NCBI GenBank assembly: GCA_045837725.1 | Contig: JBEWZL010000137.1 | Coordinates: 1 to 64,000, forward strand | Direction of reading: 5' to 3' | Length of the DNA: 64,000 bases | From: Vermamoeba vermiformis | Taxonomy: Eukaryota | Part shown: positions 1-38,335 of the stretch, one piece after another | Position numbering within the stretch: position 1 is the stretch's first letter | Layout: the number at the start of each line of letters is the position of its first letter | The notes under the pieces: generated by a model | Told to the model about the DNA's origin: nothing | Databases searched by the model: none | What the model saw: only the letters and a program-made list of their open reading frames with translations | Translations under genes and position numbers: made by a program

Positions 1-2537
1 CTCGAACCAATTCACTGATATGGTCTTGATCAAGTTTTGGACTGTCTCTTCCTGGAGAGGTCTGAGGAAGTTCTGCTGGCTCCTTTTCATCATAGTAAAA
101 GGAACGCCTGGGAACATCCCCCCGCATTCTGGTGAATCAAGCAACTCGGCTCCCCTTGTCATGACCTCATCGAATGCCGATGGGTCTGACGCAACAGGGC
201 CCGAGCCTTCGGTGGCCTTTTTCTTCTTGGCACTAACTGCAACTCCCTTCTTGAGCTTCTGTGCCTCGGCGCTCTCCTTTTGCTTGGTGGCCCAATCTAG
301 CTCTGTGGCCAGCAACTTCAGGTCGTTGCTGACAGGCTCGAGGGCGTTGGGGTCCTTGCGTGGAGTTTTCAAAGGTAGAGGTTCCTACAACAGGGGATTA
401 GTACTTGGAAAATAACAAATAACAAATAACAATAGGGTGACTCATCCTCTTACGGACCATAAGAGGACAGATCTTGACTCAGACAAAGTCCTAGTCACAA
501 CTCATCCTTTTACGGACCGTAAGAGGATGGGTCTTGGGCCAGGGAAAGTCCCAGCCATAACCCATCCTTTTACGGACCGTAAGAGGACAGGTCTTGACTC
601 AGACAAAGTCCCAGTCACAACCCATCCTTTTACGGACCGTAAGAGGACAGGGTTTGAGTAGGGCAAATACCCAGTCATGACCCATCCTTTTACGGACCGT
701 AAGAGGATGGGATCAACACTAATGATTCCTCTTATGGTCCCTTAAAGGACACTCTTTGAATTTATAATAAAAATCATTTAGTTCGTACCTCTTTTTCAAG
801 CTCCATGGGCTCCTCCTCCTCCTCTCCCTCAGGCTGTTCCTCTGCTGACTGATCGTCATCGTCGTCTAACATTGCTGTCAGGTCCACTTCACCTTTGCCT
901 TTCAGCCTGTCTGCGACCTTCTTTTGGGCTTCGGTCAGGCCTGTGGTATGCTTGACTGGGCCCTCGCTCACAGCTGCGTCGTAAGCCTCGCTCATGTTGT
1001 TGATCCTGGCCTGCCACTCCAGCCTGTTGTCCACTCGGCACATTTCCCATTGCTGGATGTGTCGATTTGTCTTGTCGACATTCCACATTGACTTTGCCGT
1101 CAGGCAGTAACCAGCTGGGTTCAAGGGGTCTGTGTAATCTACCATGGCCATCCAATGCGCTCCTGACGACTTGCGGATTGCAACAAACAGCTGCAGGCCA
1201 AGCCCCTTGATCGGATCTCCGCCTCCTTCGGGAAACAGCTCACCCTTGAACAGGATGACCCTCAGCTCAGGGTCTGGCTCCAACCACCAGCTGCCCTCGA
1301 CCTGGGAGGTCTCCCTCTTGAGGTTGCTGTAGCTACTCTTTGCTGTGTTGGCAGCAGTCATGTTTGGGAGCAGCTGGTAGACCAGGGAATTGGGAGACAT
1401 GGGCTCAGGCTGAGGTGGGGCCTGGGGTTGGGCCTGCTTGGCATACTCTGGGGTCAGTATTGCTGCCAGCTGGGTATCAGTGAAGCTGGTGTCGTTGTCC
1501 AAAAACGACTCAGAGGTGGCTGCTTGCTCCTGTTGGTGAGGCTCTTCCCTGGGTGGCGAGCTTGAGGACACTCTTGGCAGGACTGCTGGTGCTGGCTGGA
1601 TTGCACTTTGGTTGGCTGCCACTGGGGTTGGTACCTGAGCCGCTGCGCCCTTTGGATGCCTGGGGAGGGGGTTGGTCCCCTTGGGGTTGGCTTTGGGTGC
1701 TGGGCCCTTTGTCATTGATGTGGTTGCAAAGTCGTCCCACATCTCTGGGGTCATCTCTTCGATGACTGTTGATCTTGGTGGCTTGTAGGGTTGGTTGGGC
1801 TGGCCACTCTTTTTCCCGTTTCTGTAAAAATTGCGTCAGTACTTTGCAAAAAAAACTGTAAAACAAGACCCATCCTCTTACGGACCGTAAAAGGACAGGT
1901 CCCAAGACCCAGGCAGGATCCAAGACCAAGTCAAGACCCAACACCAGGCCAAGACCCATCCTCTTATGGACCGTAAAAGGACAGGACTCAACACTCAGGC
2001 AAGACCCAACACTGAGTCAAGAGCCAAGGCCAAGTCCAGACCCATCCTCTTACGGTCCGTAAAAGGACAGGTCTCCAGACCCAGGCAGGATCCAACACCA
2101 AGTAAAGACCCAACACCAGATCCAGACCCATCCTCTTATGGACCGTAAAAGGATGGGTCCCAAGACCCAGTCAGGATCCAAGACTAAGTCAAGACCCAAC
2201 ACCAGGCCAAGACCCATCCTCTTACGGTCCGTAAAAGGACAGGTCTCCAGACCCAGGCAGGATCCAACACCAAGTCAAGACCCAACACCAGATCCAGACC
2301 CATCCTCTTACGGACCGTAAAAGGACAGGTCCCAAGACCCAGGCAGGATCCAAGACTAAGTCAAGACCCAACACCAGGCCAAGACCCATCCTCTTACGGT
2401 CCGTAAAAGGACAGCCCAGAAAAAGAACAAAAACAAAAAAAAAAATTGACTGCACAACCCATCCTTTTACGGTCCGTAAGAGGATGCATGGCGAAATTTC
2501 ACTTGAAATTTCATCTGCTCGCTACTTACCCTGACAT
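1..2537 (-). CDS. Spliced, element-associated gene, 3' partial (exons 2530-2537, 789-1821, 1-384). Pro/Ala/Gln-rich N-terminus, WWLEPD-containing domain, acidic linker, then a possible ParB/Sulfiredoxin-like N-terminal segment at the window edge
   Basis: ATGTCAGG|GTAAGT donor at 2529; TACTGAC branch and TTTTTACAG acceptor at 1822 (phase 2 matches). GAG|GTACGA donor at 788; TACTAAT branch and TTGTAG acceptor at 385 (phase 0 matches). The 128 codons in 1-384 are open and end ...GVPFTMMKRSQQNFLRPLQEETVQNLIKTISVNWFE. Confidence 0.75.
441..750. repeat. Intronic tandem array with a 60-bp period, each unit holding a 23-31 bp palindrome
   Basis: Palindrome centres at 456, 516, 576, 636 and 696, plus a degenerate copy at 738. 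Typical copy TCCTTTTACGGACCGTAAGAGGA. Confidence 0.95.
1869..2485. repeat. Intronic tandem array with an 86-bp period, same palindrome
   Basis: Centres at 1884, 1970, 2056, 2142, 2228, 2314 and 2400, plus 2473. Typical copy TCCTCTTACGGWCCGTAAAAGGA; spacers are built from CAAGACC-like subrepeats. Confidence 0.95.
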
Positions 2538-2922
2538 GGCTCGCGCGTTCACTTGTGGTGCTCTGCGGTATGTGAAAAGTAAAAATAAAGGATTCAGATT
2601 TGATCCAATGCTTGCTTGGGTTTCCTCCCTGGGAGGATTTTTTCTGGGAGGATATTTCCTTTTTTGGAATTCCAGCAGAATTATTAATTCTGCTTACTTG
2701 CATAATGTCAGCCGCTTCATCCCTATACAGCTTCTTCAGGGACGCACTTTCTGACCAAGGATGTTGCTTCGAGATTTTGTTTCTAAAACTTGTCCTTCTA
2801 CGGTCCGTGCAAGGATCGACTTCATGTTGCAACCAAGATTGAGTCCCGTTGCAACAAAAGCTACTTTACTGGGGTCCTTCTACGGTCCGTAACAGGATGC
2901 TTCTGGTCTCGTTGGCACCCCT

Positions 2923-2933
2923 GGTTCGATTCC
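2923..2933 (+). promoter_or_regulatory. Isolated Pol III B-box-like motif
   Basis: GGTTCGATTCC followed by TGGCGCGGCCA, resembling a tRNA 3' end; no full cloverleaf. Confidence 0.5.
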
Positions 2934-3149
2934 TGGCGCGGCCAACTACTGGTGTGCGGACTTGAGTCACTCAAGACCCATCCCTTTACGGTCCCTTAAT
3001 GGACCAGTTTCATTGTTCCTCGCACCAGCTGGTGCTCAGAACCCATCCTTTTATGGTCCCTCGAAGGATTTGCTTCAACTCGCAAAAAAAGAATTCTGTC
3101 CTTCTACGGTCCGTAAAAGGATGCGTCTGCCTGGTGCCCCTTCTGCGCA

Positions 3150-3160
3150 GGTTCGATCCC
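3150..3160 (+). promoter_or_regulatory. Isolated Pol III B-box-like motif
   Basis: GGTTCGATCCC inside a CAGG-TTCGATC-CCTG T-arm-like hairpin. Confidence 0.5.
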
Positions 3161-3504
3161 TGGAGTCGTCAAGTTCTGCTCTGGGGACACGACTTGCCTC
3201 ACACATGACCTGTCCTTTTATGGTCCGTAAGAGGACTGTAGTTGACTATGCCCTGGGAACCATCCTTTTACGGCCCCTTAAAGGATCACTTTGACTGTCC
3301 TTTGTGCCAACTGGTACTCAGAATCCATCCCTTTACGGTCCCTTAAAGGATTGGCCTAAAATTTTTGAAAAGAATTGCATCCTTTTACGGTCCGTAAGAG
3401 GATCACTCACAGATTTTACCAAAATTTCATTTATTTTCTCATAAAATTGACAACATTTTCTGTTTTTGACATTTTTCTCAACTTAGTGGATCATCAAATC
3501 CTGC

Positions 3505-3543
3505 CCCTAACTCCTAGGAAAATGAAATAAGTGGGTATTAAAT
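3505..3543. repeat. 39-bp direct repeat, copy 1 (putative element terminus)
   Basis: CCCTAACTCCTAGGAAAATGAAATAAGTGGGTATTAAAT; 33/39 identical to 4412-4450. Confidence 0.75.
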
Positions 3544-4014
3544 ATGTTGCGCTCTTGGTCAGGCTCAATGTACCAGGTGCCAGCCTCAGTTCCGGTGCTT
3601 CGCACGTCGTCACTCCACTTGTTCATGCCTGCAGCATTACCAGTAGGGGCGTTGGGTATTTCAGCATCGACCAACGCCCGGGCACTACCTTGGCCTGCAT
3701 TTGCGCCCAGCAGCTTTGCCTCGGCCTCCGCCATCGCTCTCTCAGCCTGAGTGTCAGTGATTCCGTCATCCTCGATGCGGACTTGGTCGTCTCCACTCTC
3801 AGAAGAAGACTCGTCCGCCCCTTCGTCGACGTGGAACTTGTCGGGTGTGGCAAGCTGGGCTTTCGGAGCAACGGGTACTGGGGCTGCCTTTGCACGGCCT
3901 GGGCTAATGGGCTTCGGCAGGCGCAATGTCATATTGCCCTTGGGAGAGGACTTCTTGGGATTTCAGGGCACGTGGCTTACCTTGCCATATTTGGGCTCTG
4001 CAACTTGTTGTGCT
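3544..4014 (-). pseudogene. Truncated paralog of the 1-2537 gene
   Basis: GTWYIEPDQER matches GSWWLEPDPEL and follows a similar Pro/Ala/Lys-rich, acidic leader. Phase-2 acceptor at 4015 and in-frame TGA at 3963-3965. Homology stops at the 39-bp repeat. Confidence 0.6.
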
Positions 4015-4121
4015 CTGTGTTATGAAGTAATTAAAAATGACTAAGATTCGGTTTCTCGATTCTCTCAAAATTGCCTCCCTGCCTCCCTTTTGAAGGAGGC
4101 TTTTTATTTTTCGCCTCGCCT

Positions 4122-4132
4122 GGATTCGAACC
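4122..4132 (-). promoter_or_regulatory. Isolated Pol III B-box-like motif
   Basis: GGTTCGAATCC on the minus strand, upstream of the paralog. Confidence 0.45.
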
Positions 4133-4411
4133 TGCGCCTTCAAAGTTTTACAGGAGTTTGGCACTATTTCCTGATTCAGAGTCTGCCAGGAGCCCAGTTG
4201 CCCTGGTATCCTGATTCGCAACGGATCGGGATCGGGATTTTTCTTCCTGATTGGTGCCCAATCGGGATGTTTTCAAATTTTGACCAAAGCCATTACCTTT
4301 TTTCTGTGTTTTTCATGAAATTTACACGCTTTTTATTTTTACATCGTTATTGCTGGAAAATACAAGTTTTTAAATATTGCCCTTTTTCGACAAAAACACC
4401 TATTCCTATAT

Positions 4412-4450
4412 CCCTAACTCCTAGGAAACAGTAATATGTCAGTATTAAAT
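4412..4450. repeat. 39-bp direct repeat, copy 2 (putative element terminus)
   Basis: CCCTAACTCCTAGGAAACAGTAATATGTCAGTATTAAAT. Confidence 0.75.
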
Positions 4451-5026
4451 TGGTCCGTTGTTCAAAAGGCAACGGGCCAATCGCTCACCACTTTGAGTTA
4501 TCGAGGCGTTTCGTGTACACGAAACAATGTGTTGCACAGTTTTCGGCTGTTCATGCCCAATAATACTATTTTCTGTATCGTAAGAAGTGTGATTTTGGAT
4601 TAAATTTGCAAAGAAGATGCGATCTTAGGGAGTTTAAAAAATTTTACGAATTTATTCCCGATGCGCTATTTTGAAAGAATTTTTTCCCGGGTTCCCGTGC
4701 ATTTAAGCTGCGGGAACACTGCGGCAAACATTTATAAATCACTTACAATTGATTTTCCCGTGATAGTACGAAGATACCGAAGCGGACTTCAATTTTACCA
4801 AAAAAGGCCGTCACCGGGATCTGCTTGACTGTTTAAACATACTGACCGCGCCAGGTGGTTACGTTCATTCGTTACTTAAAAAAATTGTTCTGTGCATACC
4901 AGAAAACCAAACATTCTGTATATGCACAACGGTTAGTTTCGTGTATCTCACACGAGATTTTGTGTAGGCTAAATTTTATTTTCGCTTACACCGTCCACCA
5001 CGCGTTCGTTTTTTTGTTGAGTACGC

Positions 5027-5869
5027 ATGGGTCTCAAGAATTTACGTCGCGGGCGCATCCGTCAGGTATTCAGGCGTAAGATAATTTTGAAATCAAGGCG
5101 TAAGCTCGATCCGAATGTGCAACCACTCTCGGCTGATGACCCTATCCTCAAAGAATTTCAGGTAGTTAACGACGAGTAAGTAGCATTTTTATAGTATTAT
5201 TTTTGGCGTACTTATTTTAATTTAATAAATATTAGCTTTATTTTTTGGGATGCCGAAGGCAACGTGGCCATCCGTTTTTTCAAAAAGAAAATTCCTCTCA
5301 AATATTGCAACAACTTAGTGAAATCTTCTCGAGCCCTCAAACTGGCTGTCGGTCGTCCTGCTTGCCGCAACACCAGAAGCTACCATCTCGGTTATTGGCG
5401 GCGTTACCGTAAACGCCAGTTCCTTTCGCGCGACGGAATGGCCTGCTGCATTAAGCAAGGTGGCAGATTCTTTTACAACGTGCTGAACATGGAGCTGTTC
5501 AGAATAGTGGACAAGCTGTTCAAGCAGACGAGCAAGAAGCTGTACCAAGAATACTGCGACGTGGAGACCCCGGGCCCGCGACTTGTTGGCAAGTCGTTTT
5601 CAATGTGCGTCGTCAACTGGGGAACAACAGGCCCTCATTACGACCACATGGATCGTCCTGATGGCTTGTGTTGCGTTCTACCGTTTGGCAACTTCACAGG
5701 AGGAGATTTGGTCTTCCGTGACGAGAAGATCCGCATCCACTTTGAAAAGGGCGACATCATTTTCTTCCAATCTCAGAAGATGCTGCACGAGAACCTTCCT
5801 GTCATTGAAGGAGATAGGCAATCGATTGTATTTTGTACGGATTGGAACTCCTTTAAAACCGCCAAATAA
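5027..5869 (+). CDS. TET/JBP-like 2-oxoglutarate/Fe(II) dioxygenase (exons 5027-5175, 5236-5869; ~260 aa)
   Basis: HxD motif (HYDHMD), GLCCVLPFGNFTGGDL strand, distal His (LHENLP), 2OG-binding Arg (DRQSIVF) and an upstream YHLGYWRRY. The 60-nt GT-AG intron keeps frame. Confidence 0.8.
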
Positions 5870-6280
5870 ATCGTGCGCACAGAATACTGTGTACACTAAA
5901 TTTCTGGTATACAAAATGTACCGACTCTCTTTTCGTATGCGGTAACCTTTCTATTATTAACTTAGGTGCCCTAACCGTTAATAATTATAATGACAAAATG
6001 GATGCAATAAATGCAATTGATTGGGAGGACACTTTTCAGAGGACTGTATTGATCCGGGTGGTCGAGATTTTACGCGAGATATTTAAATACACAATTTTAT
6101 ATTTTAATCATTTATGTATTGTTTGATATAAAACAGTGACTTATTACAGAATGATTATTATTATTACATTCCCTTCGTCCCAGATCCGCCGGTAATTTCG
6201 GTGTATACATTTTTTCGTATGCACAGATCATAATATACACAAAAAGGAGGCGCGCAATTAGAAGTAATTAAAAAATTGAT

Positions 6281-6580
6281 TTATTCAAATAAAGTGGAGA
6301 ATACAATGACGTTGGAAAAGAGATCGCTATTCCACGGAAGAACATGTGAGACTACTGGGGCGTCTTTGTGTAGCTCGGCTCGGATCCAGACTTTTCCGGC
6401 TTTTGTTATAGCCCATGCCTCGTAGATCACTTGGTCAAGCGCGGTTGCTGGCGCTAGCTGAACCAACGGTCTTGCCTCTTCTACAGAGAGTCGTACGTAC
6501 TTGCGGTTTTCAGCGTCGGTAACGCAAACTCTGATGCAACTGCAGGTAGGGTAATTTACTGGGTTCCAGTCCATGTTCAT
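6281..6580 (-). CDS. Hypothetical protein, 99 aa
   Basis: ATG-initiated, GC-richer ORF in AT-rich flanks; no recognisable motif. Confidence 0.4.
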   Translation of the reverse strand: MNMDWNPVNYPTCSCIRVCVTDAENRKYVRLSVEEARPLVQLAPATALDQVIYEAWAITKAGKVWIRAELHKDAPVVSHVLPWNSDLFSNVIVFSTLFE

Positions 6581-6823
6581 TTGTGGTCGTGTTTTGCTGT
6601 TTGAAGTTAAAAAACTTATTTTTTTTTCCTAGTTGTTTTGTTACCGCGTCGAAGCCTCGACAACCAGAGCTCTTTGGAACAAACAGATTAAATGTCGATG
6701 TACACCACAAAGCTGCCTCGGAAACGGATTATAAGGTACTTAATTCGTAGCTGGCAGGCTGACATACTCACGTCAATAAAATATTTTTCACTTCACCTTT
6801 GTTTCTTGAATAATTTTTTATTA

Positions 6824-7220
6824 TTAATGGATATCAGCCCACTTAACATCGTTAATAGCGCGTAAGACTAAGGAACATCTTACGACTACGAATAATTTTC
6901 TGTAATATTTTGGATCCAGGTTTTTATAGCACTCAAGTGACGCACTACGCGGCGTTAATTCAAGTGTAGCATGTTTCAAAATCAAACCTTGCCTGTTGAC
7001 GCTCAGCTGTTGCGTCACTCCCAAAAGTCCTGCGATGAATTTTTCGGTACGTAAGAACTTACCTTTTCCAAACCTCTGAAGGGTTAGTTTAGGTCGTAAC
7101 ACGCGAGCTACGAGGTTTGCGAGGGTTTGAAAGCAGTGTGCGTCGTGGGTTTGCTAGAGGGTGATGAGCAAACCCTCTGTTACAACAAGGTAAGTAAAAG
7201 GGTCTGGGTTGTAATGTGTA
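6824..7220 (-). pseudogene. Possible degraded ORF
   Basis: The frame extends upstream of the 92-aa ORF through one TAG; no motif recognised. Confidence 0.2.
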
Positions 7221-8189
7221 TGACTAACAGTGTTAGCAGAGCGCGGAATTAATGCATTCATCAATTATTCCTGCCAAGGGCCAGCACAGATGGACGATAC
7301 ATCGTTTTGTATACACAATCAGTGTAATGTATACACAAAAACATTTTGTATACACAATTTACATAAATGACATATTATGTAAAAATAAACGTCCCTGTTG
7401 TACTGTAAACTCTCCTCAGTGTTTCATTGATAATGTTGGACTAATATATGCTTAAAAATTGAAGCAAATATCCTTCCCAAGTCCTAATGACCCAGGCGCC
7501 CTTTTATATACACATTATGGTTTATGTATACACATTCCTATGATCCTTACGAAGACCTGCCAACAACTTGTAGGCTGAAGAACAACACAATACAAGTATA
7601 TTAGTAGGTATTTCCTTCTAATGCTTTCCAAAAAGCAGATATGGAACCATTAGCAATAAAAGTTTAAATTTTGTATATACTTTTTTATTTTGTATACACT
7701 TTCCACGGCAAATGTAAAATCATTTAATGCCAAAAGCCTATAAACCTAAGCCAGCCTACTCCTAAGGCTATATATAATCATCGTTCTTCATGAGAATTAA
7801 CAATGAAATCTCATTAAATAAACATCACTTTAAAATATCAACTTCACTTTCATTCTCCTTTCTATGCGGGGGCTAACACCGCTAATATCATCATATTTTC
7901 GTACGCCTATCATATGACATTAAAAAAACAGCTATAGAAACTTTGTAGCTACTTTTTACAATATTTTATTTTTAACCCTCTCACCCCCAAACCCTAAAGC
8001 TATATTAATTATTGGAGCTATCATTTGATCCTATTGCGAAATTGAATAATCTCGTTACTGTTCAATTTCGCTCTTTTTGCGCCGATTTTTGCCAGATTTT
8101 TTCGGGGCCCCTCTCCGCCTCCAATTTCCAGTCTTTGGGGGCCCCTTCCTTGCTCCCTAACCCAAAGAGAAAAAGTAAAACCATTGTTT

Positions 8190-8768
8190 TCCAGCCAAGA
8201 TATAGCGAAACAAATTATCGAACAGGAAGTGCTACAATACCGGTTTGGTAGCATTGACGTACTTGCACAATTTGCCAACCCATAAACTAATTTTTTTGAT
8301 AGGATATTTGTAAACAATCCAAACTCAACACCCGACTGGTAGTTAACAACTGCGTGCTGATGAACGCATCTAAAAAACAACTGCCAGAGCAAATCAAGTC
8401 CTTAATTATTGACAACTTGGTCGACAAACAGCAGTCTTTATCTTACAAGCAATACAAGTCCATTGTGTTCCAAGGACACCGGTTCACAGTCGGAGACTGC
8501 TTTAGTTCTACCCAAGGTGATGGTGAACTCACTAAGTGAAAAGACATTCGGCCAGATTTTCACCATTATCAATGTAGACTCATATACAGCATTTGTTGCT
8601 CAGCTATTTGACTACGCGCAGCCAATGATCGATGAAAAACAAACTGAATTTTATTCCTTGATCAAAACCGATAGCTACGCTGTTGTAGACGTGCAAACTA
8701 CCAGTAAGGAACAGTTGCTTTACTGTGAAGACTTGAATTCATTTCTTGTAAACTTCTATTTTCACTAA
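8190..8768 (+). pseudogene. C-terminal fragment of a CACTA/EnSpm-type transposase-like gene with frameshifts
   Basis: SQDIAKQIIEQE, SIVFQGHRFTVGD and FGQIFTII segments lie in different frames, immediately upstream of a CACTA terminus. Confidence 0.5.
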
Positions 8769-8954
8769 ATAAATACTGCATGTTCGCGATCAATACATCA
8801 CCAACTTCAAACTTAATCGTATTGTTTTATCTGACCCAGACGCAAACTTTGGTACCTTAGTACATTATTGTTGAAACATAAACCACTCAGAAAAGGATGG
8901 ATTACACTAGTAATACTACTTTACATTGTAGGTGAATAGAACTGCGTGATGTCC

Positions 8955-9049
8955 ATCTCAGTGGGATACCAAATCACTAGTGATCTCATACTGAGATCAC
9001 TGCGCTACCCAAATCACTCTGAGATCGGGACTTTGTACTTTTCGTAGTG
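8955..9049 (+). mobile_element. 3' end of a CACTA-superfamily DNA transposon (TIR plus subterminal repeats)
   Basis: Reverse complement of 9035-9049 is CACTACGAAAAGTAC. Subterminal CCAAATCACT occurs twice, plus the inverted repeat AGTGATCTCA-tac-TGAGATCACT. Confidence 0.75.
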
Positions 9050-9099
9050 TCTCTTGTGTTGCTCTCTGAACTCATAGCTGTGTAGATTGCAGGTAGATT

Positions 9100-10398
9100 G
9101 ATAAAATTAATATAAAGGTTGGCGTGCTTGAAAAATAACAAAAATAAAATGGCAGTTCACAATGGTCATTTTCTCTCCACGCAGCCATGACAATCTATGA
9201 AGAGTTATTCAGCTCTCTATTTGCGCACAACCATTAAGTAATGTTAGATTCATAGTAATCCAGAAGAGTCTTTGGAATAGGGCAACCTACTTTTGGCAGC
9301 TATATCTCCAGAACTAGTTCTGGCTCTAAAAAAGGAAGGACTCATCAATTTTACATGCTTGTCTGAGTCTGGAAGGAGCCTATTCTCACGCCATCTTTAA
9401 AAGGTGTCTGAGATAGAGTGTAAAGAATTGTGCATTTTCTCTCAAAAATCTATGAGATTTCCATGGCAGTGACCGGTTGCAACCTTGATTTTATTAAACA
9501 AATCTTCCCTTTCAACCAGCACACTATAGTCCTCAACTGAAGGGGCCAACTTGATCCATAAATCTTACCATAAGCATATCTATATAATCTTAACTCTTAG
9601 AAGCAAACTGCACAGCATCTTGGATAGCCCTTGCTCTGCTGAAGTTAATCTGCCACTGCCTACATCTATCTATTTGTTGCCTAAATAAGAATTTAAAATT
9701 TTTAAGTATTGCAGGAATTTGTGCTGTTCTGAGATACGTACACATTTCAAAAAGTTTAGGTATCAAGTAAGTACTCCTCAAGGTCATGCCAGTAGCAAGC
9801 CCTTCAGCAATATGTCCTACAAATTTCAATGCTACAACAAATTGATGCACACAGTTGGGACAATTATGAGATGTGCTGTTATTTTGCTTGCTTAACAAGA
9901 GTTAATCACTGAATGCTTAGTCTATTTATCTCTTTTGAAGTTAGTGTAAGGGAAGTCAACTTCTCCTAAGTTAAATACAAGTTAGTGTTATCCCGTCGCT
10001 GAATTTCCACCTTTGTAACTAAGACTTTCCACCATGTTAACTCTGATGTACACGACGTCCTGGGCATTGTGACGTACTTATGGAGATTAGATGGAATCTT
10101 CCCAGCAGGATTTTACCTGTTGCTGCAGCAAGAACTCACGTAATGTGGGGCAAAGCCATATCAAGGCATGCATATCGATTTCAATGTTGTCCATTTCTGT
10201 AGCTGGCAAGTACTGAGCAATCAAAGGGATTGGGTCACTTCTTAGAGGTGGCCAATATTTATGTCAGTACCACTTTCTCAGATAGTTGCTAACAATAGTG
10301 CAACATTGGTACAAAAAATCTGTGTTCTTCTTCAGGTCCTGCAAAGTGTGCTCCATTTTGAAGGACCTTTTGCTAAAAAAGTTTTGTAGCCGGTTCAT
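9100..10398 (-). CDS. Possible multi-exon hypothetical gene or pseudogene in CpG-poor DNA
   Basis: ATG at 10398 (MNRLQNFFSKRSFKMEH...), exon-like SDPIPLIAQYLPATEMD...LLQQQ|GT, and the 9590-9898 ORF. The 3' end is unresolved. Confidence 0.3.
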
Positions 10399-11541
10399 TT
10401 GTTGAAACACAAGCACGAGGCCTCAAACCACAAAAAAAAAATTTCTGTTCACCCATAAAAAGGCAATTTTGCCCAACTACCATTTCTAATTATCATGAGC
10501 AAGCCAATGAGTTCCAGAGAGAAGCTCTAGAAAGAAAGACGGTCAAGAGTTCAGTAAATTAGTGGGTAGTTACCAGCTAAAATTCCTGTTTTAAATATCA
10601 CAGATTACTTTTGAAGGTGTGAGAAGCTATGTTTGGTTGCTTGATGCCAGGAGCAGTAAGCATTCAAATCAATTTATTCTTCTCTAACAATGACAAAGAA
10701 CAACTCCATATTCTTTGACAATGTGCAGCATCGCTATTCAAACTATCGGAAAGTGGTGAGAATGGAACGCTTTGGAGTGTGGGTTCCAAAAAGTGAACTT
10801 TGGTCATTGCCAGAGGGCTCTTGACCCACTGAAACACTTCAATAAGGTCCAATCTTTCCTTAGCTCAATTTGCAATGGAGGGAATATTCCATGTACGTCC
10901 TAACCAAAGTAACTGCAACACCACAAATGTCAGTGTAGACTTATGGTACATACCATGGCTGATGGAGGTTGTGAAAGTTTGATCAAGGCATGTAGCATAA
11001 AATGAAAATATACACCTATAAAGATTAAAATTAATGAATGCATCAAGGGATTGCCAATCCACAGAAGTGATGGGTCTACACCCAAGTGTACTGGGGTGAT
11101 TATTTGTTCTATCCTTCGTCAGCATGGTGTAAAGCTGGTCAGCAATTTGATCTCAATTGGCATAACAGGCACAGTTCGGCTTGAAGCTAAGCAAACAATT
11201 GAGTTATTTCTAGCAAATGGATGTGGGAGTACTGCAGCAGGTGGTGGTACAATACTTTGGAAGTATATTATAAGCAGAAAAGTGGCTGTAATAAAAAATA
11301 TGGAGCAGGAAATATGCTTGAAATACAGTGAGAGACCAACAAATCAAAGAGAAACAGTAAAGAATTGTTTTAGTGATTGGCAAGGAGTTACCAAGTAAAC
11401 CAAAGCTAAATTAAGACTTCAAGCATGTTGCAGAGATTTAAATCTGAACGTTAAAGGAGAATCAGAAGCTTAACAGAAGCTTTCAAGGCTGTAAATAACA
11501 AAGCATTTATGGTGAAGAAGTCTACTATCTTTACTTGAGCC

Positions 11542-14179
11542 TTACACTAAATTCAGCAAGCCCAACAGCACAACAATTGCACCTTGATATAACAATGTTG
11601 ATCCAGAGGTAATTCTTGTGCCTGACAAACAATATCAACAACTATTGCTAGCTTTCAAGCAGGACTTACCATCTGGATTGTACACACCTGGAGGATAGCT
11701 CCATGTGGCTGGATCATAGGAGAATCCTTGGGGACCTAACAGGGGTGAGTTGATGAAACAATCTTGTGATCAATGTATTGATTCTTACCAACAGCACCAG
11801 GTGATTGAGTGTTTGGAGCATTGAAGCTCAAATCTTGTCGTCCCATGTCAGCAAAGGCATCCAAGACTCTCTTCACACTTGGAATAGCTGCTGCTGCAGG
11901 ATCACCCTGAGTGAGGTTGACTGTGCGGTCAGGATAGTAGTAGAAGTTGGCTTCAGGTCCTCCACCGTAGAACTTGAGATCCTGATTCATCACTGACAAG
12001 AAGAGCACATCAACAGGGTTGTCTCCGATTTGATTCACTTTGCGTTCAGTAAAGGCTTTGTTGTCCAAACCAATGCTGGGCAGCACGTACGAGAACAGAC
12101 CACGGTAATTGTTGATCGTGCCGAGGACATTTGAGTCGTACATCATGCACTTGGCGCCCTGCAGCACCACACGCCCAGGAGGGCTGTTTGGCTTGCCCTC
12201 GACATACACGGCATTGATATCTGGATGTTTGCCCCAATCACCAGACTGTTCGTAATAGTAGTCACCGATGATCACATTCTGATTGTCGTACACTTGCAAG
12301 TTCATCGAGTTGCTGTACAGCACTGTCAACAGACCGTCTCGCACAGGTTCGTCACCTTCTACGATGAAAGGTAGGGCATTCAAGAACTCGACCAGAATAT
12401 ATGCACGAGCACTGTTGCGTACTCTCAGCATGCCGTTGAGCATTCGAATGTTGACGCTGTCCCCTTGCCCAAGTCCGTCAATAAGCAGCGAGTCTCGAGG
12501 CTCAGAGATCCGTTCAAAGCCGCTAGACACACCATAGATTCGGTCATACACCGTGTACGAAGTAGCAACACCTTCTTTGCGCACGTGATGAATTGCGATG
12601 GAACCAGTAAAGCCATCCTCCTTATAGAACCACATGCCACGCAAATGAACATTGGTTGGAGATTCGACGCGTACTATCGTGCCAGGGCCAGTATTCTTCC
12701 AGTCCAAACGTGTTATGTAGCCCGCACCTTCTAGGGCGTAATTGGCGCCATCAATCACTACCGTTGTGGACACCTTGTAAGACCCCTTGGGCAGGTAGCA
12801 CACGGCACCGTTGCCCTCTTGTTTGGCAGCATTGACGCAGTTTTGAATTGCCACTCCAGAATCCACTCCAGGTTTCGTGGCGTTGAAATCCTTGACGGCA
12901 TCGAAGACTTTAGATCCGGTCTCAGGAGCGAGAACTCTGAAGCTAACTGGTGCACTAAGTTTGTAGTCTGTCGGCTCGGGTCGTTCAATGTTCCACACAG
13001 GCCATTTGGCGGATCTGTTGTCGTAAAGAGCCGTGGATCCGTTAAAAGAGTTACCCGAGAATATTTTGTCCACTCTGTGGGTATATTTGTCGAGAGGTAT
13101 CAACGTGATGGGCGGATTAGAGTTCGGAGGATGAGCAAAGGTATTGTCGATGATCAGCAGAGGGTTCCACGTCTTGGTGACCACAGTGCCGTTCGTATTG
13201 GTCCACTTCTCCACGTAGCAGTTGTGCATAGTGAATTTCTGATTATTTGACTCTGCGGTGCTGATGAACATTCGCGATCCTGACGAAGTGCAAGAGCGGA
13301 TTGACACCGTGTACGATGGCTCACTGATCTGTAAACAGATTAACTTGATGGTACAATACTAATTAAATAGTACTTACATCAAAATCGGCAAAAGTACTGT
13401 TCTCGAAGTGACACCGACGAATGGATCCTGTCGCGAAGTACCACATGGTCACACCGACTCGATTGTCATAGAAGTCGCAATTAGTAATGATTTCGTTGTA
13501 GTAGTTTGGATCCTGCACGAAGAGAGCACGACCACAGTTGATGAACAAGCTATTCGACACTTGGCTTTCAGATGTTGCGAATTTTTGATAGTACGATCCA
13601 AAGCTGAGACATCTCTCGCGAATATTACGGAAGGTCTCGTACTCGTGCAGCACTCGACTTTCAAATTTAACTTTTGCAGCGTGCAAAAATCCGTGGTCGA
13701 CGTTGTTATTGCCTTCCCACGTCAAGCCAACAAATCGAGCGAGCGGATTGCCATCACTCACGAACATTCTCGAGTTGTTGCCCCCCGGGGAAGAGTCACC
13801 GTACCACGATATCACCGTCGCTCCTAATCGTATGAATATGATGAGCAAATGCGATTGGTGCATATCTATTGAATTTACCTCCGTGCCCAATCAAGGTTGA
13901 AAACTGTTTGTTGATCATCCACAGCGTGCGCGTGATCTTGTAAGTGCCGGGAGGAAAGTAGAGCGTGCCCGGACTGGTGTCATTTAGCGAGTCAATGGCT
14001 GCTTGGAGCGCGTTCGTGTCATCAGCGATGCCATTTCCAACTGCAGCGAAGTTGGTTTTAACGTTGATCCAATCTGAGCGCGGTATCCAATTCAATACTG
14101 GAGGCTCGCGAGAGGCAGATTCAGTGCCAATGAGACTGCAAGCTAACAAAATCACCACAAAATAATGAAATGTTGCCAT
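11542..14179 (-). CDS. Secreted, probably GPI-anchored protein with tandem right-handed beta-helix (pectate_lyase_3/GH55-like) domains
   Basis: Signal peptide; DWINVKTNFAAVGNGIADDTNALQAAID...LYFPPGTYKI and a second KVFDAVKDF...CYLPKGSYKV cap motif. Spliced hydrophobic tail ...SGSTLLYQGAIVVLLGLLNLV*. Confidence 0.8.
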
Positions 14180-31700: not shown

Positions 31701-31997
31701 TTTGATTTGTTTATTGTTGTGCTGATTGACGTAATTTAGGAATAAATTTGCCTGCCATTCACGAAAAAATCGGCGCCGCGAGACACGTGATTGTGGGGCG
31801 AAAACTACCGGAAATCTGTCGCGACTAAACAATTACTTTCCCCTCTTTAAGGAGCATGCACTGATACTAGTATTGATACACGGACCGTTTGTGTAGCTAA
31901 CCTACAATAACTTGCTGGAGCCGATCATGAATTAGTCCCGCATCGGGTCGTTTTGTAGTACATCAAGTTTAATACAAAATTCGCAAATAATTACAAT

Positions 31998-36331: not shown

Positions 36332-38335
36332 TTAGTCCCCAAAGTGCGAGTGTTTTGGTCGTTTGGCCTCAGAGCCGTGATTGTCATTTTGATGGGCCTG
36401 CGAACTGTCTGCTCGTTTGCGCTTGTTGTCGGTTGGAGTATTGACAGTATTTCCTTCTTCCGCAGCATCATGCCTCTGCGCACCATTTGCCGCATCTATA
36501 TTTACATTGGTGTTATTAATGTCGTTAATATTGCTTTCCTGATTGCCGTCTCCGTCCAAAGAGATTTCAATTTTGTTCTCGGTGCCACTTTGAGGATTTG
36601 CACTCGAGTTAGTATTATTTAAATTGATATTATTTAGCTGCATAATATTCATTTTGATCAAATTCAAATCAATTTTCTTGGCATTGAAGGCCTTTTTCTT
36701 TCGTTGATTTCGTTTTTTGTTCTCAAAATGACAATGTTCTGCTTGATGACCGTGGTTTTCACTCAAATAAGCTGGTTTGCCGTTAATGTATTGTCGTTTC
36801 ATGATGACTCGTTTGCGCTGTTCTGGATCTGGATTTGGTGAGCTCAATTTCCGATGCGCAGATATTTTGCGTGATATTTGCAATGACATGCGCGCTATTT
36901 GTGCATTCAGCTTTGGATCAGTTTCACTGAATCCCTTTCGCTTGGTGAGGTACGCACGGAGAATTGAAATTTCCGCAGTGCAGTCGTAACAATGATCAAT
37001 GCCTTCACCGCGAATGCTGTGTCGATAACGCCCCACGCGTGTGACAGTGTTGAAATGGAACATTTTCTCTTCGTACTCGGTGTTGTCGTATTCAATTTCA
37101 GGGGCGTTGAAATCAGCTATCAAGCGCGACTCTGTGGTCGTGACTGGACCCCACACGGGCAAGTAGATCTCGCCTGCGAGATACTTGGTTTTGCCTGCGC
37201 GCCACGACAGTCTGAACTTGAGCATGCTCTTGCGCGCACCCATCAACTTGTGCCACTGACTTTGATTCGCCATGTCTTTGGCCACTTGTTGCTCGGTCTC
37301 TTCTTCGGTCAGCACCGTCGGATCTGCGCTCCGAATGTCTGAAATGAACAAAATGTCTTTGTATAAAACACCGAACTCTTGTGCCAATTCATCCGTGAAC
37401 AGTGTGTTGGCACGCAATGCTATCTGCGGCAATCGTTCTTTGACCGTGAATGGCGCGGGATCCACGAGCACAAAGTTGACGTCGGGAAACATGTTCGACA
37501 AGTACTCAATGTGCGTGCCTGGTGCGGCCCCTGCATAGATCACAGTCGTGCCAGGCAGTGCGTGCAGAGTCAAGAACTCAATCTCGGACAACAACAGCTT
37601 GCGTTGTCCCCAATGAATCACTGTCTTCACCTCTTCGCGCCGTCGTCTGTACTTCATGCGCGGGGCATTGGTCTGCAACACGCGCGAGAAGCTGATGTCT
37701 GTGCGGCTGTGGTACTCGTTGTTGTGCTCGACTTGCTTGCAGTGTGGATTGCGCGTTAAATCTTCCCACGCAGCTAATCTCTCGCAGAGCATTGGTTGGT
37801 TAAACACATCCAGGACTAAATTTAGAAAAGACGTCAATTTATGAAAATTATCGTTGTCGCTATTTTATACAGTATACACGCTGTATCGTAAATATTAATG
37901 GTATTATAGATATCGCGCTCCTAAATTATTGATATTACTGAGGCCATTGTGCTTGGAAGAATTTGAACGATTCTAAATTATTTCTGTTTGAATTGTCTAA
38001 TTTTCAAAATATTTTACGTACCGTCATAATTAATTTCATCTATACTAGGTGCATTATTTGTATTTTCCTCTTTTTTCTCTTCCTCTCCAGCTTGATCCTC
38101 GCTATTTGTAATTAATTGAAACTCATCCGCATCTTCTTCCGCAGCGACATTCTCATCCTCATTGTACGATATTATAAGACTATCGTCTGGTGGTGACTCC
38201 ATTGAATGCAATACCTAGGCATAATCGTGTTAGTCGTGTCATCTGGATCCGTTGTGGCATAACAAGAAAACCACAATGGCAAAGCATGAATATTATAACA
38301 AATTTACATCAATTGAGCGCATGACTTACGGTCAT
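36332..38335 (-). CDS. Poxvirus VP39-like cap-specific mRNA (nucleoside-2'-O)-methyltransferase (exons 38330-38335, ~38021-38215, 36332-37815)
   Basis: [41 protein letters not shown] and ESRL motifs (K-D-K-E tetrad). Splice phases join an acidic N-terminal exon. Confidence 0.85.

Follow-up and report, generated by a model that had tools for sequence, protein, structure and literature searches.

A probably mobile, palindrome-bearing gene cassette near a TET/JBP-type dioxygenase gene in Vermamoeba vermiformis

ParB-like proteins have been proposed as accessory products of eukaryotic transposons. PAG3, from giant Plavaka (EnSpm/CACTA) transposons of the red alga Bostrychia, combines a ParB-like part with a 2-oxoglutarate (2OG) oxygenase and is adjoined by tandem inverted-repeat arrays (bioRxiv 10.1101/2025.02.11.637652). 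The authors of that preprint (Petroll et al.) propose that the element binds and modifies itself (bioRxiv 10.1101/2025.02.11.637652). An accessory protein of Sola1-1_Ec32 from Ectocarpus carries a ParB-like domain and a DNA methyltransferase and has been proposed to attach to its own element and alter it epigenetically (PMC12477816). In bacteriophages, a subclass of the TET/JBP-family enzymes termed 5mYOX depends, when acting on double-stranded DNA, on an activator that is ParB-like (O'Toole et al. 2026, PMC13229309), and the ParB-dependent enzymes are characterised there as thymine dioxygenases (PMC13229309). Many lineages of fungal DNA transposons are also described as carrying TET/JBP genes, for which an anti-silencing role is proposed (Kojima 2025, PMC12730594). 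Here we describe a locus at the start of a 64,000-nt stretch of Vermamoeba vermiformis DNA (assembly GCA_045837725.1, contig JBEWZL010000137.1, positions 1 to 64,000, forward strand; the whole stretch is called the window). In this intron-rich eukaryote, the first 3.5 kb of the window, unit A, is probably one end of a repeated accessory-gene cassette, and neither an ordinary host gene nor a partition locus.

Compared by description only, PAG3 and unit A are alike in combining a gene on a mobile element (a probable one for unit A), a weak ParB-like resemblance, an association with a 2OG oxygenase, and inverted-repeat arrays by the gene. They differ in architecture. The ParB-like part of PAG3 is N-terminal and fused to the oxygenase, whereas that of unit A would follow an orphan beta-rich domain, with TET/JBP encoded by a separate gene; the arrays of PAG3 lie next to the gene, whereas those of unit A lie inside two introns and upstream, with no transposase visible. 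The phage system sets a TET/JBP enzyme beside a ParB-like protein, with the ParB fold repurposed for base modification and not for segregation, but the genes are those of bacteriophages, and the partnership was shown biochemically there while we infer it here from gene adjacency. Sola1-1_Ec32 resembles the proposed unit A product in having a ParB-like DNA-binding module on a eukaryotic transposon; it differs in its methyltransferase fusion and lack of an oxygenase link, and no palindrome arrays are reported in the available portion of its description (PMC12477816). The fungal elements share a compact TET/JBP gene among repeated, methylation-targeted elements, but the main text mentions neither ParB nor binding-site arrays (PMC12730594), and no transposase is seen in our window. 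Our searches for published work on ParB with JBP or TET in eukaryotes or fungi returned only the PAG3, Sola1, phage, and fungal-cargo cases, and a survey of the ParB-CTPase fold gives sulfiredoxin as the commonest eukaryotic representative.

Older parallels concern the arrays themselves. In bacterial ParB/parS (PF02195), too, palindromic sites cluster close to the gene for their presumed binder, but sequence membership in that family is not detectable here, no ParA accompanies the gene, the site is unrelated to parS, and the gene is an intron-bearing nuclear one. Tandem units of about 30–70 bp make up the baculovirus hr elements, the family of repeats in oriP of Epstein-Barr virus (EBV), and the yeast 2-micron STB locus, where they act as enhancer, origin, or maintenance sites; each hr or oriP unit contains an imperfect palindrome to which a dimeric protein encoded by the element binds. 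Those arrays belong to viral or plasmid episomes, whereas the arrays described here are chromosomal and partly intronic, with no replication function indicated.

The gene of unit A is read on the minus strand and runs off the window at position 1. From upstream to downstream, its features are:

2783–3410, no strand assigned: upstream palindrome array of nine copies, including a duplicated block of about 282 bp
2530–2680, minus strand: first exon (ATG at 2537–2535 plus 5 nt, 8 nt in all) with the 5' leader and a core promoter block that is conserved with unit B, a paralogous unit described below
1822–2529, minus strand: intron 1, 708 nt, donor GTAAGT at 2529 and acceptor CAG ending at 1822; eight palindromes at 1863–2492
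789–1821, minus strand: exon 2, an open frame encoding a disordered N-terminal region, an orphan beta-rich domain, and an acidic tail
385–788, minus strand: intron 2, 404 nt, phase 0, donor GTACGA at 788 and acceptor TAG ending at 385; six palindromes at 435–757
1–384, minus strand: exon 3, partial and open to the window edge, encoding a Lys-rich linker and then a stretch of about 35–50 residues that has been called ParB-like

Both predicted exon joins preserve the reading frame. Alignment of the two units shows that unit B has kept the leader, the ATG, the first exon of 8 nt, and the GTAAG donor, which speaks for a real first intron. Three RNA runs with the same species label placed no reads on 1–6000 and carry no weight as a test of expression or splicing. 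Elsewhere in the window introns are about 50–60 nt long; an MCM2-like gene falls into about 11 open reading frame (ORF) pieces spaced a few tens of nucleotides apart. The arrays occupy about 630 of the 708 nt of intron 1 and 323 of the 404 nt of intron 2, and without them both introns would be of ordinary size, about 80 nt each.

The palindromes form a single 23-bp family (D2), of which a repeat finder located 23 copies: six in intron 2 at a spacing of 60 nt, eight in intron 1 at a spacing of 86 nt, and nine upstream at irregular spacing. We scanned the 64-kb window with the IUPAC pattern TCCTYTTAYGGWCCGTAARAGGA, allowing up to three mismatches and using 100 shuffles as a control. The scan gave 43 strand-positions, equivalent to 22 distinct sites, every one within 445–3402, and no copy in the exons or the rest of the window; the shuffles gave no match (chance expectation 0). 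The 23rd copy, at 2981, was seen by the repeat finder alone. The string ACGGWCCGT occurs 15 times in the window, the sole occurrence outside the palindrome region being at 31880. Thirteen palindrome positions are invariant in all 23 copies (T1 C2 C3, T7 A8, G10 G11, C13 C14, T16, and G21 G22 A23). Each core pairs with itself at 8–10 of 11 positions, many copies extend to about 33–37 nt, and five copies across unit A are of a CCCTTAA-type variant. Metagenome contigs held no exact match to the palindrome pattern. The 23 palindromes lie in two tandem arrays and one duplicated block, as inverted-repeat arrays of the PAG3 type. A preliminary description of this DNA had reported the 6/8/9 distribution over intron 2, intron 1, and the upstream region, the confinement of the palindrome to noncoding parts with none elsewhere in the window, and two introns (708 and 404 nt) far above the local norm; the repeat finder, the pattern scan, and the predicted gene model agree with it on these points.

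Arrays of this kind could be neutral minisatellites, in which a hairpin-prone palindrome of 23–37 nt was amplified by slippage or unequal exchange and has no function. Several features would fit such an origin: Tandem Repeats Finder reports regular periods of 60 nt in intron 2 (with a higher order of 120 nt) and 86 nt in intron 1 (with a higher order of 172 nt), the arrays occur only where coding is unharmed, the 37-nt forms fold as DNA hairpins at about -9 kcal/mol (z about -4), and the element looks methylated and decaying. Comparison of the cores with their spacers points the other way. Core identity is 0.954 vs 0.861 for the spacers across six full 86-nt units of intron 1 and 0.957 vs 0.712 across four full 60-nt units of intron 2. 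The upstream array contains an old duplication, a block of about 282 bp with three palindromes per block, in which 60 of 69 core positions are identical (87%) vs 61 of 112 outside the cores (54%). The three array contexts have nothing in common beyond the palindrome and a short flank; one core is kept in three unrelated spacer settings, and the same palindrome is amplified independently in three places, the two introns and the upstream region. Positions 5 and 19 of the palindrome vary without maintenance of their pair, and therefore a double-stranded site, not a hairpin, is what is kept. Homogenisation of the arrays could account for part of the core likeness, but hardly for the upstream duplicate. 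These sequence comparisons support the palindromes as conserved cis sites, not neutral filler, and the core conservation fits the predicted site of a dimeric DNA-binding protein.

The distribution of CpG dinucleotides bears on the same question. Unit A has a CpG observed-to-expected ratio (o/e) of 0.34–0.66, vs 1.0–1.2 in the host part of the window; exon 2 alone stands at 0.34, with a TpG plus CpA o/e of 1.49. Depletion of this kind is what one would expect to see in methylated, deaminating repeats, or in DNA that came from elsewhere. Of the 27 CpGs in the two introns, 23 lie inside palindrome cores, and the intron sequence outside the cores has an o/e of 0.09 (4 CpGs in 790 nt). The CpG positions of the cores are intact in 35 of 46 cases; the 11 that are lost comprise 6 that now read TpG or CpA and 5 that belong to the CCC variant of the site. 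The persistence of core CpGs amid such depletion is a further point against neutral minisatellites, which we consider quite unlikely. Core identity above that of the spacers, and the CpGs retained in the cores, bear out the preliminary description in so far as the palindromes behave as conserved cis sites.

Evidence that unit A is a repeat-like unit comes from its upstream boundary, where it meets the paralogous unit B:

3505–3543, minus strand: 39-nt boundary motif of unit A (family D7), repeated at 85% identity at 4412–4450, at the edge of unit B
3544–3959, minus strand: unit B, truncated paralogous ORF corresponding to residues 44–184 of the protein P0002 and cut off at the edge of unit A
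3960–4450, minus strand: upstream region of unit B, with no palindrome, its own short repeats, and the boundary motif at 4412–4450

The 39-nt motif has exactly these two matches in the window. The unit B ORF, which is 28% identical to exon 2, matches P0002 at 138 of 141 residues up to 3540–3543, and the window has no counterpart of the other 174 P0002 residues. Unit A therefore interrupts a B-type gene, precisely where the motif ends. Two contigs of the DNA run X1 part from the sequence immediately after 3543; of the 492 letters of one contig, 295 cover 3541–3832, and we infer that its remainder runs on past the break. Further X1 break points fall at 3960, 3976, 4088, and 5919, and a contig piece starts at 4449. 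Other contigs carry a second A-type copy (P0001, 99%) and an intact B-type one (P0002), with allelic or strain variation as a possible source of the A and B copies. Unit A has one sharp boundary (3543) and a filled-versus-empty comparison with P0002; its other end was not seen in the window. The alternative X1 junctions, the 39-nt boundary, and the interrupted paralogue accord with the earlier placement of the gene in a mobile element, and unit A is probably a mobile, repeat-like unit. We hold the cassette and its cis sites, taken without any proposal on mechanism, to be clearly probable.

Unit B and the surrounding noncoding DNA offer some further observations. The upstream region of unit B has short repeats of its own, with three copies each of TCCTGATT and ATCGGGAT within about 100 nt (4169–4268). 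Besides being truncated, unit B seems to be internally deleted: the first 43 residues of P0002 have no counterpart in the window, and the conserved ATG and donor are followed after only about 27 nt by the ORF, out of frame (3960–3996). GGTTCGA motifs resembling a tRNA T-arm or an RNA polymerase III B box occur at 2923 and 3150 on the plus strand and at 4126 and 2 on the minus strand, two of them between upstream palindromes and one in the unit B upstream region. We rejected them as tRNA genes because ARAGORN and Rfam scans of the window found no tRNA gene and no RNA family.

In the roughly 480 visible residues of the unit A protein, a disordered N-terminal region rich in Pro, Gln, and Ala is followed by a conserved beta-rich domain (about 130 residues), an acidic tail, and a Lys-rich linker, after which another domain begins. 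The protein belongs to a tiny orphan family. HMMER against 1,835,955,588 representatives returned four proteins at E ≤ 0.001 (P0001 of A type, P0002 of B type, P0003, and P0004), none of which carries a name, and a word-index protein search retained one protein among 2293 candidates. Exon 3 drew 319 "longer" and 2 "near" candidates from a set of 5.8 billion proteins, none scoring; exon 2 drew 183 pattern matches in a metagenome scan, with no relatives; and the family alignment drew 66 pattern matches in viral contigs, again with no relatives. Pfam assigned no family to the visible protein. The fold was not predictable with AlphaFold2, which gave a pLDDT (predicted local distance difference test score) of 42.4 with a six-row alignment and 36.3 for the domain alone. 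For the conserved domain, Foldseek found no match in the PDB at E ≤ 0.001 and VIA-align none at Z ≥ 5 among 48,161 chains; the best VIA-align match (2y8f_A, a Ran-binding domain; Z 3.8, root-mean-square deviation 3.7, 81 aligned) is too weak to name a fold. The best score of this domain by Atlas language-model features was 0.80.

Upstream of unit B lies a compact gene of a different kind:

5027–5869, plus strand: TET/JBP-type 2OG-Fe(II) dioxygenase gene of two exons, about 260 residues, with a 60-nt intron at 5176–5235; resembles Pfam Tet_JBP and Naegleria Tet-like chains

The Pfam match to Tet_JBP (PF12851) has an E value of 4.7e-07 and 29.6 bits, under the 34.9 cut-off; that to 2OG-FeII_Oxy_3 reaches 26.9 bits vs a cut-off of 27, and Naegleria Tet-like chains in the PDB match at E 0.02–0.03. 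By eye, the translation contains an HxD...H motif (HxD plus a distal His). X1 break points delimit a unit at 4451–5919 around this gene, with the piece start at 4449 and loose ends at 5919; a hairpin with 11-nt arms at about 4450–4481, also seen by eye, opens it. The 480 visible residues of the unit A protein include no oxygenase; the TET/JBP gene is separate, 1.5 kb upstream, and on the other strand.

A possible explanation for these features would involve a protein acting on the arrays. The palindrome cores would be loading sites for a dimeric, sequence-specific DNA-binding protein, and the main candidate would be the product of the cassette itself, whose next domain starts at the window edge and is possibly ParB-like. 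By analogy with PAG3 cassettes and the phage ParB-dependent enzymes, the bound protein would recruit or activate the TET/JBP dioxygenase. The regulatory DNA of the element would thereby be kept free of 5-methylcytosine, making the arrays part of an anti-silencing device in cis. We put the whole chain, from a mobile cassette with a ParB-like binder on its arrays to a TET/JBP partner and anti-silencing, forward tentatively, at somewhat short of an even chance.

The ParB-like candidate comes from an Atlas language-model search with residues 75–128 (exon 3). Three clusters bearing PF02195 rank first, at scores of 0.87, 0.86, and 0.86; 10%, 12%, and 75% of the proteins in these clusters belong to it, and ten of the ten best matches that have a family fall in the ParB_N family or clan. 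ParB_N had been named beforehand, in the preliminary description, and was then ranked first by Atlas. At most about 35–50 residues of such a domain lie inside the window. When the genomic and literature context is counted as well, the presence of a ParB-like domain in the full protein stands at roughly even odds.

A number of results weigh against the proposed chain, several of them concerning ParB. Pfam, PHROGs, and NCBIfam gave no ParB match at E ≤ 10, and phmmer against the PDB gave none either, its sole listing being a RhoGDI chain at E 0.27. Searched by tblastn against 72,556 plasmids, the last 50 residues produced two chance-level matches, neither on a ParB gene. With hhalign, ParB_N profiles of 2 and 22 bacterial sequences gave P of 0.76 and 0.44, with one aligned column each; the larger profile held 20 of 22 ParB_N matches plus two others, L102 being omitted for an internal stop and L093 as a near-duplicate of L092. 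A genome scan with the two-sequence ParB_N alignment found nothing. The Atlas scores are below 0.9, with 86, 84, and 82 of 256 features shared, and a score in this range is a lead only; a third of shuffled proteins also reach ten of ten in one clan. The diagnostic ParB box (Arg-rich and GxRR-type; compare the GERR/GHRR columns of alignment A7), along with any DNA-binding domain, would lie left of position 1. The domain calls in PAG3 are themselves weak, with HHpred E values of 0.29 and 0.016 and no InterPro domain (bioRxiv 10.1101/2025.02.11.637652).

Others of these contrary results concern the arrangement of the locus. The TET/JBP unit adjoins unit B, not unit A, and, unlike neighbouring unit A, it is not depleted in CpG (o/e 1.28 across 4451–5919). 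The 490-bp upstream region of unit B has no unit A palindrome, which means that the sites are not common to the whole family; each of the two paralogous cassettes may have a site set of its own. The window showed no transposase, terminal inverted repeat, or target-site duplication, and it also lacks an inverted copy of the 39-nt motif that could serve as a terminal inverted repeat. Over the first 6 kb, X1 gave 309 contig pieces, 182 at ≥99% and 127 at 95–99% identity; these pieces show variant copies or strains and alternative junctions, not copy number. Finally, unequal exchange in tandem arrays can hold cores alike without selection.

The ParB results also bear on a reading in which the cassette is the same but the ParB likeness is spurious, and the arrays are enhancer or autoregulatory sites of another factor with no tie to TET/JBP. 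This factor could be a host transcription factor reading CGG-N-CCG or TTAC...GTAA half-sites, or an unrelated protein of the element. Inverted CGG triplets are typical sites of fungal Zn2Cys6 proteins, and TTAC/GTAA halves are bZIP sites. The failure of every profile and BLAST test for ParB favours such a factor, as do the conservation of cores above spacers and the clustering of sites around the gene start; on the other side, the Atlas lead names exactly the family predicted beforehand, and a ParB-like start, a 2OG oxygenase, and inverted-repeat arrays together match the published PAG3. We judge this reading to be rather unlikely, though a serious contender. For the ParB-like segment of the preliminary description, then, no profile or BLAST search gave support, and the Atlas lead of 0.86–0.87 is the sole positive sign. 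The wider idea, of a eukaryotic mobile element whose ParB-like product binds its own arrays, fared better in one respect: the same idea has been put forward independently for transposons of red and brown algae, but ParB has no profile support here.

The rest of the window carries host genes, among them those for MCM2, RtcB, ubiquitin, a purine-cytosine permease, a tyrosine phosphatase, and F-box and RRM proteins, and because the locus is contiguous with these ordinary genes it is chromosomal. It could still represent an extrachromosomal element, since integrated, with a true ParB/parS-like system of partition or replication. In favour are the palindromes clustered close to a gene that has a ParB-like start; palindrome arrays serve maintenance in EBV oriP and in baculovirus hr elements. 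The contiguity with MCM2, RtcB, ubiquitin, and permease genes speaks against it, as do the spliceosomal-type introns of the gene and the lack of any exact match to the palindrome pattern in a viral contig collection. None of the 31 window ORFs scanned against Pfam is a ParA/CbiA-type ATPase or a replication protein, one of them having a weak, sub-threshold match to AAA_13 (E 0.0017); the scanned ORFs likewise include no transposase. A partition function is unlikely, and the integrated partition system as a whole seems to us very improbable indeed. The partition or extrachromosomal replication suggested at first finds no support, given the chromosomal locus and the 0 of 31 scanned ORFs of ParA type.

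Several side observations were made elsewhere in the window. At 6200–7700, downstream of TET/JBP, a second cluster of short palindromes, TGTATACACA, is found in AT-rich sequence that shows no clear ORFs; 11 of the 13 window matches to it (at most one mismatch) lie here, with 4.5 expected window-wide, and the copies occur partly as inverted 34-nt arms at 7328–7361 and 7665–7698. A further block at 8001–12000 is strongly depleted in CpG (o/e 0.37–0.40, vs 1.0–1.2 in the host part), and none of its five scanned ORFs has a Pfam match at or above the curated cut-off; it may be another degraded repeat or a portion of the same large element. Among the host genes, a long ORF at 36332–37864 on the minus strand matches PF01358, the poxvirus-type poly(A) polymerase regulatory subunit/cap 2'-O-methyltransferase (E 2.9e-19).

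That transposons carry an accessory ParB-like protein together with inverted-repeat arrays and a 2OG oxygenase has been proposed since 2025, and unit A would be a variant on this theme. Its architecture differs in that the arrays lie inside introns, TET/JBP is a separate gene, and the N-terminal domain is an orphan; its CpG footprint hints at what the system would protect. The algal proposals involve weak homology and no experiments, and the phage activator was shown biochemically in 2026. The present locus unites the three components in another eukaryote; it offers a well-defined 23-bp site containing two CpGs, a compact TET/JBP gene, and a mutational footprint of the methylation type from which the sites are spared. 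Should the rest of the gene prove ParB-like, the result would be a small, directly testable system of one protein, one enzyme, and one 23-bp site; if it does not, the locus would still be a clean case of selected palindrome arrays in the introns of a mobile gene. It is conceivable, though improbable, that a ParB-like clamp loads on the CpG-bearing arrays and recruits or activates TET/JBP so that the element escapes silencing, as a nuclear counterpart of the phage ParB-dependent TET/JBP enzymes. If this is true, the survival of CpG solely inside the palindromes would be the evolutionary footprint of such protection, the locus would be an independent second case of the red-algal PAG3 idea, and the finding would bear on how transposons resist silencing by DNA methylation.

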